Source: a virus
Length of the DNA: 64,000 nt
Direction: 5' to 3' (one strand)
Virus genome (UHGV): UHGV-0351052
Shown here: piece after piece, positions 47,637 through 58,866 of the stretch
Numbering within the stretch: the first letter of the stretch is position 1
Layout: every line of letters starts with the position of its first letter
Translations under genes and position numbers: made by a program
Notes under the pieces: model-generated
Told to the model about the DNA's origin: nothing
The model's database searches: none
What the model saw: the letters and a program-made list of their open reading frames with translations, nothing else

Positions 47637-47957
47637 TTATTCTTTAAATCTAATCAATTTATTCATAGACTTTGAAACTTCTGCACGAACCTCATGTAGA
47701 TTTTTGAGCTGTTCAAGACGCTGCTCATAGTAAGCAATTTCATCTTCTTCGAGACAGTCCTGTGAATCTTCTTTAAGATAACGTGCATAGTCCTGGAAAG
47801 CATTACGAACTACTTCCTGGAAGTCATCAAGACTTTGAATTTTCTTAGGAGCAACAGATACACGACGAGGGGCAGTATAATACTCATAACCAAACCCTGC
47901 GCTTAATTGAGCCATTAGTATTTTTCCTCTGGTTGGAACACTGCGCGACAAGCCCAC
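47637..47957 (-). CDS. hypothetical protein (vs.3-like, 106 aa)
   Basis: ORF track. Confidence 0.45.
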
Positions 47958-48181
47958 ATACTGGCTTCTTTGAGTTTCGTTTTAGCAATAGCTAACTGAT
48001 CGAGGCTTTCAGCATAATTCTTCGCGAGTTCAAAGTCTTCGCAATCATCCCACGCTTCCCAGAATTCATCGTATAAAGCATCAAAGATAAGTCCTAAACG
48101 AACTTCAGCGTCTTTGATAGCATTCACTTTACCGATTTTCTCTTCAGTATGTGGTTTATAACCCTTAATATCTTCAATCAT
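47915..48181 (-). CDS. Vs.4-like protein, candidate Acb2-type cyclic-oligonucleotide sponge
   Basis: Position (second ORF upstream of regB) and size match T4 vs.4, which I recall as the T4 homolog of anti-CBASS Acb2; sequence itself not verified. Confidence 0.4.
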
Positions 48182-48395
48182 ATTTGACTTCCTCACCAGT
48201 ACATAAATCGTATTCAACTAAACGAATAGGTTCATGAATGCCATATCCCTGAACAGAAATTTCTGTCGTGGGATAAATTCCATCAATATCGCCCATATTC
48301 CACGCTTCATTAAATTGCTGTTCGCCTGAATTACTAAACCATTCGGCGAAAGCATTTAGCACATCTTCAGAACCTTCAATAATTATCTTTGCCAT
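48174..48395 (-). CDS. hypothetical protein (73 aa)
   Basis: ORF track. Confidence 0.5.
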   Translation of the reverse strand: MAKIIIEGSEDVLNAFAEWFSNSGEQQFNEAWNMGDIDGIYPTTEISVQGYGIHEPIRLVEYDLCTGEEVKYD

Positions 48396-48757
48396 TACAA
48401 ACTCTCGGTAAAGGTACGAGCGATAACGTCGCGCTGCTGTTCCGGAGTCAGAGAGTTAAAGCGAACTGCATAACCGGATACACGGATGGTCAGCTGCGGA
48501 TATTTTTCCGGATGCTTAACTGCATCTTCCAGAGTTTCACGACGCAGAACGTTAACGTTCAGGTGTTGACCACCTTCAATTTTAACTGTAGGCTGTTGCT
48601 CAATTTCAATTTCACGGGCATGCAAACCGTAGAAAATTTCTGGGTCTACAAAAGAGTCCTCTTTAAAGGTTTTAGAGACAATAATTCGTGCTTGAATACC
48701 ATCTTCAAAATAAATAGTACCTTTATGTGTGCCTTCAAGAATTTGATATGCTTTCAT
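48395..48757 (-). CDS. autonomous glycyl radical cofactor GrcA/YfiD-like protein
   Basis: C-terminus [60 protein letters not shown] with glycyl radical motif RVSGY; coding DNA for this half is GC-rich and host-like. Confidence 0.8.
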
Positions 48758-48764
48758 ATAAACC

Positions 48765-49145
48765 TCAATTAGAAAATAAATTTATCCAAGATTGTTCTTT
48801 AATTAAAAATGGCTCAGAATCATATGCCATTAAACTCTGTGTGATTAGTCCTTTAAAAGGCCCATCAATAAATTCCATGGTAAAATATGGAATTTTATTC
48901 ATTAGCCGTGCATTAGGAGCAGTGCACAAAACTCTGCATCCTTTGAATACACCTTTTTGTAATTTGTATTGCTTGGGATAAAATTCGCTCAAAATGTTAT
49001 TTTTTGCCAAAATTTCAAAATGATTCACCAATTTATTTTTAATAGTTTTTGGCGAAAAATAAAGATATTCGAAAAGCTGAGTGTCTGTCATCATTGCATT
49101 CCGATTACGAAAAACTGTGGACGAGTAATACCACCAATGCAACAT
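48765..49145 (-). CDS. hypothetical protein (126 aa), possibly 3-prime part of a split gene
   Basis: ORF track; overlaps next ORF by 55 nt in another frame. Confidence 0.4.
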
Positions 49146-49678
49146 TTAATATTACAGCAGCAGTGTACAGTGTCAATATGGACACTATAAATCTTATCCA
49201 TATCAGGAGATTTGACAGGCTCATCAATTATATACAAAATTCGCGAAAGCGATAAACCTCTGAACTTGCTTCCTTTATTACCAATAAAACTGCGCACAGA
49301 ATCAGTAAATAAACGAAAACGTATATCATCATTAGAATAACGCGAAAATTCCTTTTTAATATTATCTGCGGAAATTTTAGCGTAAGCTGAAGTATTAGAA
49401 AGAACAATAACTGTTCCACCGTCATACAACCAATTAGCGGCAAAATTAGTTACTGCAGTTGATTTACCGGATTGACGTCCACCATCTATACGAAGTGTGC
49501 AATACTGTTTAAGTAAGTCTTCAAATGGTGGGATATAATCGTTTTTACAAATTTCTTCTACTCTAGCATCAGAATGGTGTGTAAAAGCATTCATCAGGGA
49601 TAGATAAGGACCAGTTAAAAATGTTCTCATTTTGTTCTCTCTAGGTTTGGGCCATTCCATGGCGCATGAATTGTCCAT
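49091..49678 (-). CDS. P-loop NTPase-like protein with terminase-like Walker A (GGRQSGKS) and Walker B (YIIDE); possibly truncated
   Basis: Motifs read from translation; odd Cys-rich C-terminal tail suggests frame disruption. Confidence 0.45.
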   Translation of the reverse strand: MDNSCAMEWPKPRENKMRTFLTGPYLSLMNAFTHHSDARVEEICKNDYIPPFEDLLKQYCTLRIDGGRQSGKSTAVTNFAANWLYDGGTVIVLSNTSAYAKISADNIKKEFSRYSNDDIRFRLFTDSVRSFIGNKGSKFRGLSLSRILYIIDEPVKSPDMDKIYSVHIDTVHCCCNIKCCIGGITRPQFFVIGMQ

Positions 49679-49787
49679 TTCTGTATTTACCCATTACCGC
49701 ACTTGGGCTCGACCTTATTACAGGTTGGCGGGAATCCCTCACAGAATCATGAGGTCCAGGTTGTTCCCATGTTATTTGAATGTAAAT

Positions 49788-49805
49788 AGGCCTATACTTA
49801 GGCCT
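49788..49805 (-). terminator. hairpin downstream of ipIII
   Basis: aggcc-tatactta-ggcct. Confidence 0.45.
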
Positions 49806-49807
49806 TA

Positions 49808-57416: not shown

Positions 57417-57824
57417 TCAGCCTCTATCAACGATAGTATGAGTATGAGCATTTACGATTTGCCACCAATCAAAGCGATTAGAACCATAATCTGGTTTGTT
57501 TTCATTTTCTTTGATAATATCACGCAGTTTATCTTCTGTTTCAGCATACGCAATTAAATCATCATATCCACCACAAGGATAATAATTATCACCTGCGAAT
57601 AAAAGAAAATTTACCTTAGATGGATTTACGTAATAATGGTCTTTAGGATATTTAGTTCCCCTCCAATCAGTTACTTCAACATAACGATAAGAAAATCCAT
57701 TTTTACTTTCAATCCAACTCCACGCTTCAAAAGGAGTATTAAAAACTCTATCAGGTATTAAATTACCTTCAAAATGAGAAGGATTTGCATAATCCCCGGC
57801 ATAAACATAATATTCGTTACTCAT
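57417..57824 (-). CDS. hypothetical protein (135 aa)
   Basis: ORF track. Confidence 0.5.
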   Translation of the reverse strand: MSNEYYVYAGDYANPSHFEGNLIPDRVFNTPFEAWSWIESKNGFSYRYVEVTDWRGTKYPKDHYYVNPSKVNFLLFAGDNYYPCGGYDDLIAYAETEDKLRDIIKENENKPDYGSNRFDWWQIVNAHTHTIVDRG

Positions 57825-58010
57825 TTATTCACCTTTAGAAATTTTATCCATAACGATAGCGATTAAACCAATTAAAAATGCTACTACAAGTGAAAACACA
57901 TTTTCTGCTGTAGTCAATAATCCGCATATAAATCCAACAAACATTGAAAAACTAAAAGCGGAAGCAGAAATTGCAATAGCAGCATTTCGAATTAATTCAC
58001 AACGTTTCAT
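57825..58010 (-). CDS. hypothetical small membrane protein (61 aa)
   Basis: ORF track; hydrophobic. Confidence 0.5.
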   Translation of the reverse strand: MKRCELIRNAAIAISASAFSFSMFVGFICGLLTTAENVFSLVVAFLIGLIAIVMDKISKGE

Positions 58011-58036
58011 TTTATTCTCCTCAGTAGTTGATAGGG

Positions 58037-58068
58037 TAATAGTATCACAACTAAAACCCTATGTAAAC
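58037..58068 (-). promoter_or_regulatory. T4-type early promoter
   Basis: taatagtatcac -10 region, gtaaac 58063-58068, upstream motif ctttgtgaaattattttaaa identical to site at 58381-58410. Confidence 0.55.
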
Positions 58069-58080
58069 AACTTTGTGAAA

Positions 58081-58338
58081 TTATTTTAAATCTTCTAATC
58101 GTTTCTTCATCTTAGAACCATTTTTAGCAATTTCTCCTGCATCGGAGCATAATGCTAAAAGCGCTTTAACTTTAGTTTGGTCTCCTTTAAAAGATGAAGG
58201 ATCGACTGCAGCAGCAAGTTCTTTAATACGAGAGAAAAGACGTTCAGCTTCAGCTAAAGCCATTCCAAGCTTTACTTCCATACCGTGGGAAGATTCAGTA
58301 ATAGTAGTTTTTGTAGCAAACTCTTTGAAAGTTTTCAT
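58081..58338 (-). CDS. IP-locus internal protein with capsid targeting sequence (MKTFKEFATK), distinct from T4 IPI
   Basis: 85-aa ORF immediately upstream of 57B (the ipI position in T4); N-terminal leader resembles CTS of ipIII; body differs from T4 IPI as remembered. Confidence 0.55.
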   Translation of the reverse strand: MKTFKEFATKTTITESSHGMEVKLGMALAEAERLFSRIKELAAAVDPSSFKGDQTKVKALLALCSDAGEIAKNGSKMKKRLEDLK

Positions 58339-58366
58339 TTTATTTTCCTAATTAATTTTGATGAGG

Positions 58367-58398
58367 TAATAGTATCACTACCTCGTCAGTATGTAAAC
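58367..58398 (-). promoter_or_regulatory. T4-type early promoter for IP-locus gene
   Basis: taatagtatcac and gtaaac 58393-58398. Confidence 0.55.
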
Positions 58399-58410
58399 AA
58401 CTTTGTGAAA

Positions 58411-58866
58411 TTATTTTAAATCGTCTGCCCAATCGAGTTTAAGAGGCTCTTTGTATTCACGATCTAATACGACCGGAATTTGTACATCACCGCTAAATGA
58501 TAAGGGCCCAACATTATAAGACAATGTTATATGCGGTGTGTAATCATCAAAATCATGTGTAGCACCTAGTGCCCGCGCATACATGTGTCGACAGCGCAGA
58601 TATTCAGAATCTAACACAAGTACAAGAGTCGATCCATCTTGTGTTTTCCATACTTCTAAATGTCCAGAAGAAGCTACTTCAAAACTTCCACTCGATGGAA
58701 CATATGGAACATTTACTCTCGAATAACATATGGTCGAATGAATTTTTTCTCTAGGAACTGGATTAGGAACACGCAAAGAGCGCTGAAGTTCTTCCAGCGC
58801 ATCAAGTGTTAATTCTGAAAACTTAGCTGCTACATAAAGACCCGTTGAAAAGTCTTTAAATTCCAT
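58411..58866 (-). CDS. 57B: gp57B, 2H phosphoesterase; anti-CBASS nuclease Acb1 homolog
   Basis: 151 aa; two H-x-[ST]-x motifs (HSTI, HITL); position upstream of 57A. Confidence 0.75.

Follow-up and report, generated by a model that had tools for sequence, protein, structure and literature searches.

A 64,000-nucleotide stretch of UHGV virus genome UHGV-0351052, hereafter called the window, was analysed with a focus on two minus-strand genes, 57B and vs.4. The window is very probably a T4-like genome segment carrying orthologues of both published T4 genes directed against CBASS (antiphage signalling that is based on cyclic oligonucleotides), namely acb1, coding for an enzyme that degrades the immune signals, and acb2, coding for a sponge that binds them. 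The features at issue are the following:

58411..58866, minus strand: 57B (acb1), a 151-amino-acid 2H phosphoesterase predicted to cleave cyclic oligonucleotide immune signals (function from identity with T4 57B; Pfam and PDB matches)
58729..58740, minus strand: first catalytic motif of 57B, H43-S-T45-I (T4 H44/T46); translates as HSTI and aligns with the HxT motif of FBB1 Acb1
58522..58533, minus strand: second catalytic motif of 57B, H112-I-T114-L (T4 H113/T115); translates as HITL and aligns with HITLSYN of FBB1 Acb1
47915..48181, minus strand: vs.4 (acb2), an 88-amino-acid predicted cyclic-dinucleotide sponge (function from identity with T4 Vs.4; PDB, Pfam and PHROG matches)
47990..48052, minus strand: variable patch of Acb2, codons 44–64, which contains all five differences from T4 (alignment and nucleotide comparison)

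All long open reading frames (ORFs) between positions 47000 and 60000 are located on the minus strand, and the GC content is about 35%. A megablast search with this region matched 1164 phage records, nearly all of them from T-even-like phages of Escherichia, Shigella, Salmonella and Klebsiella. The best records reached 90–97% query cover at 94–96% identity, and none was identical. Gene-by-gene tblastn against T4 (NC_000866, 61000–77000) showed that the T4 gene order is reproduced (vs, vs.1, regB, vs.3, vs.4, vs.5, vs.6, vs.7, vs.8, ipIII, e, nudE, e.2–e.6, e.8, segB, trna.2–4, 57B, 57A, 1, 3), with protein identities to T4 that are mostly in the range of 83–100%. Based on this gene order and degree of identity, the window is assigned as a Tequatrovirus (T4-like) genome segment.

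Gene 57B of T4 (NP_049750.1) encodes the founding Acb1, as a preceding sequence-only reading of the window had stated. It was found by activity-guided fractionation of T4 lysate for degradation of 3'3'-cyclic GMP-AMP (cGAMP); the protein has a 2H phosphoesterase fold with an HxT/HxT active-site tetrad (H44, T46, H113, T115), a dedicated cyclic-nucleotide pocket and a C-terminal lid closing over the bound nucleotide, and its cleavage reaction is metal-independent, proceeds in two steps and occurs 3' of adenosine (PMC9117128). The same work found an H44A/H113A mutant to be catalytically dead, assayed T4 Δacb1 lysate for cleavage of cyclic nucleotides, and included plaque assays of the mutant phage on hosts with CBASS (PMC9117128). 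The 57B protein of the window is identical to residues 2–152 of the T4 protein at all 151 positions (pairwise BLASTP); with an E value of 2e-116, a chance match is of no concern. It covers the complete Pfam model PF23474 (Anti-CBASS protein Acb1; profile positions 1–144 of 144) with an E value of 2.6e-60 and 202.7 bits, the bit-score cutoff being 27 for this model as well as for PF24729, and it aligns via residues 8–148 with Acb1 of Erwinia phage FBB1 (PDB 7t26, E 4.1e-62). A regular-expression search for H-x-[ST]-x yielded exactly the two motifs that had been ascribed to this ORF, HSTI at amino acids 43–46 and HITL at amino acids 112–115. The HxT/HxT tetrad is complete and includes both catalytic histidines, H43, T45, H112 and T114 being equivalent to T4 H44, T46, H113 and T115 shifted by one. 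The C-terminal lid region (FBB1 residues 145–152) has its counterpart in a C-terminus that is identical to that of T4 Acb1, and the FBB1 alignment extends to residue 148 of the query. FBB1 Acb1 (PDB 7T26/7T27) shares both HxT motifs and the C-terminal region with the window protein but has many substitutions outside the motifs; it is a more distant orthologue and serves as the crystallised representative rather than as the closest relative. Judged by these matches the 57B ORF is an Acb1 orthologue, which would have the enzymatic activity established in the T4 experiments.

At the DNA level, 57B differs from its T4 counterpart at five of 456 positions, all of them synonymous. Its start codon begins one base within the 57A stop codon (gaagaaTAATGgaa), so that the two genes share a TAATG overlap. 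Because the start reads ATAATGGAA (ATAATG) in the window and ATGATGGAA (ATGATG) in T4, the window protein is one residue shorter at the N-terminus. The T2 gene also starts with ATAATG, and its 151-amino-acid product is 100% identical to that of the window. The ORF lies at the T4 57B position as previously proposed, that is, directly after 57A (58866–59096) and gene 1, and the same holds for T2. Matches to the protein were obtained by tblastn in 1471 phage records, 499 of which show at least 99% identity. The neighbouring minus-strand gene 57A, which encodes a tail-fibre chaperone, specifies 76 amino acids compared with 80 in T4, as four residues (AKDE) are missing close to its C-terminus, immediately ahead of the stretch that overlaps the beginning of 57B.

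T4 Vs.4 and its homologues have been named Acb2 (PMC10449767; PMC10312549), in line with what the sequence-only reading had stated. PHROG 717 was used to define the family, for which 198 homologues were collected (PMC10097602). T4 Vs.4 binds cGAMP with a dissociation constant (Kd) of about 30 nM. Its hexamer takes up three cGAMP molecules, one in each of the pockets that lie between pairs of monomers, with base stacking by Y8 and F82 and with hydrogen bonds and salt bridges from Y8, H11, K23 and R79 (PMC10097602). The same study described the loss-of-function alleles A77I, T12I, S74N and L60F, and found that knocking out vs.4 lowers plating on a Cap2-defective CBASS about 50-fold (PMC10097602). 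In a second laboratory T4-Acb2 bound 3'3'-cGAMP with a Kd of about 84 nM (PMC10312549).

The assignment of the ORF at 47915–48181 as vs.4 had been made on position, and the gene is indeed flanked by vs.5 and vs.3 as in T4. The assignment is now backed by the protein itself. Its 88 residues align end to end with T4 Vs.4, 83 of them being identical (94%; pairwise BLASTP, E 8e-62), and significant matches were obtained to the T4 Vs.4 chain in PDB 7uq2 (E 1.4e-52), to Pfam PF24729 (Acb2/Tad1, hairpin domain; Acb2_Tad1_hairpin; E 1.2e-20, 73.8 bits) and to phrog_717 (E 1.2e-31). The mechanically called ORF extends to a TTG codon at position 48217 (100 amino acids); a GAGGA lies upstream of the ATG at 48181 with an 8-nucleotide spacer, and the 88-amino-acid product starting there aligns over its full length with T4 Vs.4. 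Conserved in the window protein are Y8, H11, T12, K23, F33, L60, S74, A77, R79 and F82. These comprise all residues of the dinucleotide pocket (the stacking pair Y8/F82, the polar residues H11, K23 and R79, and the nearby S74) and also F33, L60 and A77, sites of mutations with an effect on T4 Vs.4, whose conservation bears indirectly on hexamer assembly. The vs.4 ORF is, on this evidence, an Acb2 orthologue; its product is predicted to form the hexamer, and to exert the in vivo effect, known from experiments with T4 (PDB 7UQ2, PMC10097602).

Acb2 of Pseudomonas phage PaMx33 belongs to the same family and shares the sponge principle and the hexamer with three dinucleotide pockets, but its identity to the T4 type is only about 24%, and it has a second type of pocket for cyclic tri-AMP (cA3) and cyclic AMP-AMP-GMP (cAAG), which the T4 type lacks (Huiting et al. 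2023; PMC10312549). T4-Acb2 has the same dinucleotide range as the PaMx33 protein but binds neither cA3 nor cAAG (PMC10312549). The residue pair of the PaMx33 trinucleotide pocket, R67/T74, is not found in the window protein, which has D61 (as T4) at the position of PaMx33 R67, and T68. The second pocket is a subtype feature and no requirement for membership in the Acb2 family. Given D61, T68 and the failure of T4-Acb2 to bind cA3, the window protein is classed, from its residues, as a T4-type, dinucleotide-only Acb2.

The upstream neighbour vs.5 (48174–48395, minus strand) is present in a 73-amino-acid long form that matches phrog_1986 over its full length. It overlaps the start of vs.4 by 8 nucleotides, whereas T4 vs.5 encodes 58 amino acids and is separated from vs.4 by a gap of 36 nucleotides. 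TAATG overlaps are found between vs.4 and vs.3 and between vs.6 and vs.5. Together with the 8-nucleotide overlap of vs.5 and vs.4 and the TAATG of 57A and 57B, they show each of the two genes to be closely packed with its neighbours, which suggests translational coupling within long early or middle transcripts.

The two genes had been presented as one feature spanning 47915–58866, which turned out to be inappropriate. They are separate and non-contiguous, and the 10,952-base span is merely the distance between them. acb1 and acb2 are 10.2 kb apart, and between them are about 25 unrelated protein genes, eight tRNA genes and rnaC/rnaD, arranged in the backbone order of T4 and T2; lysozyme gene e, nudE, e.2–e.8, segB and trna.2–4 are among them. 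Synteny with T4 and T2 extends to both sides of both genes. Terminator-like hairpins are located between acb2 and acb1. An Rfam scan of 54700–57200 detected the eight tRNAs only, and rnaC and rnaD were placed by blastn against T4.

The Vs.4 protein of the window deviates from that of T4 by the substitutions L44W, N46D, C50F, F52L and T64A. Among the 13 nucleotide differences between the two genes, the seven non-synonymous ones all fall into codons 44–64 and the six synonymous ones are scattered over the gene; codon 44 has all three of its bases replaced (CTA to TGG). In an alignment of 13 Vs.4 homologues (named among them T4, T2, Bas36/Paracelsus, S2_01, BYEP02, FJ1, LF73P3, PD112, Phapecoctavirus, Mosigvirus, Citrobacter phage Ursula and Klebsiella phage KP15) these columns are variable, with L/W/F at position 44, N/D/S at 46, C/F/D/L at 50, F/L at 52 and T/A at 64. 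The segments K9–T12, K23–E26 and L70–P84 are invariant or nearly so, and the columns of the ligand contacts and loss-of-function sites do not vary, with the N-terminus of T2 as the exception. The exact window allele (100% identical protein) is present in phages vB_EcoM_KAW1E185 and 303Ecol101PP, and F50, L52 and A64 are common to the window allele and phage Bas36/Paracelsus.

Hosts with the Panoptes system sense the sequestration by Acb2 of a decoy, 2',3'-cyclic di-AMP (2',3'-c-di-AMP), and 14 of 15 T4 escaper phages had mutations in acb2 (PMC12657218). Restriction of T4 requires a nucleotide-binding Acb2, as the system is not set off by alleles Y8A and F82C, and Bas36 is restricted more than 100-fold (PMC12657218). 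Since Bas36 carries F50, L52 and A64 and is restricted by a system whose action on T4 depends on Acb2, these three residues are, by analogy, probably compatible with nucleotide binding. T2 represents a different case. It escapes Panoptes, and its mutation was said to probably disrupt the binding site (PMC12657218). T2 Vs.4 (NC_054931; L012:10591-10851) is encoded at the same locus and is identical to T4 from K9 onward, but its N-terminus is rewritten (MKILRD followed by KPHT) and lacks I5-K6-G7-Y8 including the base-stacking tyrosine, which fits the published remark on the binding-site mutation and Panoptes escape of T2. The corresponding part of the window allele is intact, and we therefore predict from its sequence that this phage behaves like T4 and not like T2 toward Panoptes. 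Possession of an intact Acb2 would confer resistance to weak cGAMP-based CBASS at the cost that Panoptes (OptSE) hosts detect its decoy sequestration, so that, unlike T2, the phage is predicted to be sensitive to such hosts.

Sequence identity and conservation of catalytic and binding residues are what was observed in the window; activity, hexamer formation and in vivo effect are carried over from the T4 experiments, and the following model is to be read accordingly. Acb1 would hold a cyclic oligonucleotide over the HxT/HxT tetrad and, in two steps and independently of metal, cut its 3'-5' bond 3' of adenosine. By its identity with the T4 protein, it is expected to hydrolyse adenosine-containing cyclic di- and trinucleotides. 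Acb2, a helical protein of 88 amino acids, would assemble into a hexamer with three pockets, each between two monomers, in which a cyclic dinucleotide may be clamped between Y8 and F82 and hydrogen-bonded via Y8, H11, K23 and R79. With such sequestration the host would have to produce more signal before its effector is triggered. The two activities may be complementary: T4-type Acb2 binds neither cA3 nor cAAG and Acb1 cleaves trinucleotides, so that Acb1 would cover the trinucleotide signals missed by Acb2.

Weighing against the assignment of the pair are a competing database label for 57B, the outcome of a promoter scan, and two of the five Acb2 substitutions. As to the label, the RefSeq records of T4 and T2 and PHROG 755 all name 57B 'RNA ligase', the gene is located about 1.4 kb from the tRNA array, and LigT-type enzymes and 57B have the 2H fold in common. 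It could be argued on these grounds that, as a 2H enzyme tied to the tRNA cluster, 57B has RNA ligation or RNA repair as its primary role and that its anti-CBASS activity is incidental. We regard this as extremely improbable. The label is an older, fold-based one with no ligase assay behind it, and among the family models it is the dedicated Pfam one for Acb1 that 57B matches best (202.7 bits). Furthermore, it was as the cGAMP-degrading activity that 57B was reached by lysate fractionation, the Δacb1 mutant was tested for cyclic nucleotide cleavage and on CBASS hosts, and the structure has a pocket dedicated to cyclic nucleotides plus a C-terminal lid (PMC9117128). RNA ligation as primary function was rejected on the Pfam match and that publication. 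In the promoter consensus scan of 47500–60500, 59 promoter-like sites were counted, which is not above the shuffled expectation of 48.8 ± 5.5, and the scan gave no minus-strand promoter-like site directly upstream of vs.4 or 57B. Expression is consequently assumed from T4, and no promoter or transcription unit was assigned. The notion that the span 47915–58866 is a single anti-defence island, with the two genes forming one co-regulated module, is hardly credible. It could draw on their location on the same strand in a T-even region known for variable accessory content, and on the internal-protein genes ipIII and ip5 within the span, as such genes include anti-restriction functions in T4. The two genes are, however, separated by the numerous unrelated genes listed above and by terminator-like hairpins, and the gene order is the conserved T4 backbone with no insertion; the 11-kb island was rejected because this order is kept.

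The third point concerns W44 and D46, which may affect the protein; W44 is a bulky change with all three codon bases differing. The window Acb2 might be functionally altered by its five substitutions, being either without activity, apparently like the T2 allele, or shifted in its ligands by a gain of cyclic trinucleotides or a loss of affinity for the Panoptes decoy. The clustering of all amino-acid differences in codons 44–64, including the triply changed codon 44, is what one might expect in this case, and T2 Vs.4 is a documented case in nature of a lost binding site, as it lacks I5–Y8 in agreement with PMC12657218. Moreover, Y37, A57, L60, D61 and T64 of T4-Acb2 were proposed to clash sterically with cA3 (PMC10312549), and T64, the only one of the five that differs in the window, is replaced by the smaller alanine. 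Against an altered function stand the unchanged state of all published cGAMP contacts and of the loss-of-function sites found by screening, the location of the substitutions in the normally variable part of the family, and the presence of F50, L52 and A64 in Bas36, which is still restricted by Panoptes. The failure of T4-Acb2 to bind trinucleotides was, in addition, attributed mainly to an unkinked helix and different helix angles, and a D61R single mutant gave no rescue (PMC10312549), and for these reasons a gain of cA3 binding through T64A alone is unlikely. Taken together, we consider a functional alteration very unlikely and favour an Acb2 of the T4 type. The patch 44–64 lines the part of the protein that in PaMx33 Acb2 makes up the trinucleotide pocket, and T64A removes a proposed block to cA3, so that the ligand range could widen or shift. 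W44/D46/F50/L52/A64 might on this basis be a naturally selected specificity variant with a wider or shifted ligand range, or with less affinity for 2',3'-c-di-AMP while cGAMP binding is kept, a proposal to which we give very little credence.

That this phage may carry both a degrading and a sequestering counter-defence is correct by sequence, but T4 itself had already been stated to encode both Acb1 and Acb2 (PMC10312549). Both genes and their co-occurrence are known, and there is nothing new beyond a minor natural allele of Acb2. The numbers of phage records found in the vs.4 and 57B searches are similar for each genus (Escherichia 607 and 619, Klebsiella 275 and 278, Shigella 84 and 80, Enterobacter 56 and 56, respectively), which suggests that the Acb1–Acb2 pair is standard equipment of this phage group. 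The discovery value is hence small, the analysis confirming the standard T-even anti-CBASS pair, both members of which were published in 2022–2023. Of practical use is that related records, in which 57B is annotated as 'RNA ligase' and vs.4 as 'hypothetical protein', should be corrected to Acb1 and Acb2. The natural variation clustered in Acb2 codons 44–64 represents a cheap allele set for studies of sponge specificity.

Several other features of the window differ from T4. The slot beside 57B that is occupied by ipI in T4 holds, at 58081–58338 on the minus strand, the gene for an 85-amino-acid internal head protein that is 98.8% identical to T2 ip5 (phrog_3499) and has at its start MKTFKEF, a leader characteristic of internal proteins; no match to T4 ipI, which encodes an anti-restriction internal protein, is present in the window. 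Likewise, tblastn gave no match anywhere in the 64-kb window to T4 denV (endonuclease V) and ipII, both of which are located between vs.8 and ipIII in T4. In the window vs.8 is followed directly by ipIII (49808–50383; region 49094–49808). The N-terminal 34 codons of vs.8 of the T4 type (49620–49742, minus strand) reach a stop, and the ORF resumes in another frame (195 amino acids, 49091–49678). Since the vs.8 PHROG profile begins at an internal MRTFL, the short form of vs.8 is apparently the common one, with T4 being exceptional in its extension.

In place of T4 e.7, an unrelated ORF of 177 amino acids is found at 53917–54450 on the minus strand (phrog_6869, E 3.7e-105). A 116-amino-acid ORF (55305–55652, minus strand; phrog_3355, 94% identical to T2 gp136) lies between rnaD (55186–55302) and tRNA-Arg (55671–55747), where T4 has no gene; in the mechanical ORF list it is prolonged to a TTG that falls within the tRNA. 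The tRNA cluster also contains segB (55751–56416, minus strand), whose GIY-YIG homing endonuclease product is 82.8% identical to that of T4 segB compared with 95–100% for flanking genes. The tRNA with a CAT anticodon at 56458–56529 is called Met by ARAGORN and tRNA-Ile in the T4 annotation. Finally, a stretch of about 70 nucleotides just upstream of e.8 (about 54775–54848) recurs at 13134–13206, 39172–39235, 37231–37290 and 58021–58090 with 72–95% identity. Several copies of this repeat coincide with minus-strand TTTACA-17-TACTAT promoter-like sites (54827, 58067, 58397), and the repeats are probably shared early-promoter or leader modules of T-even phages.

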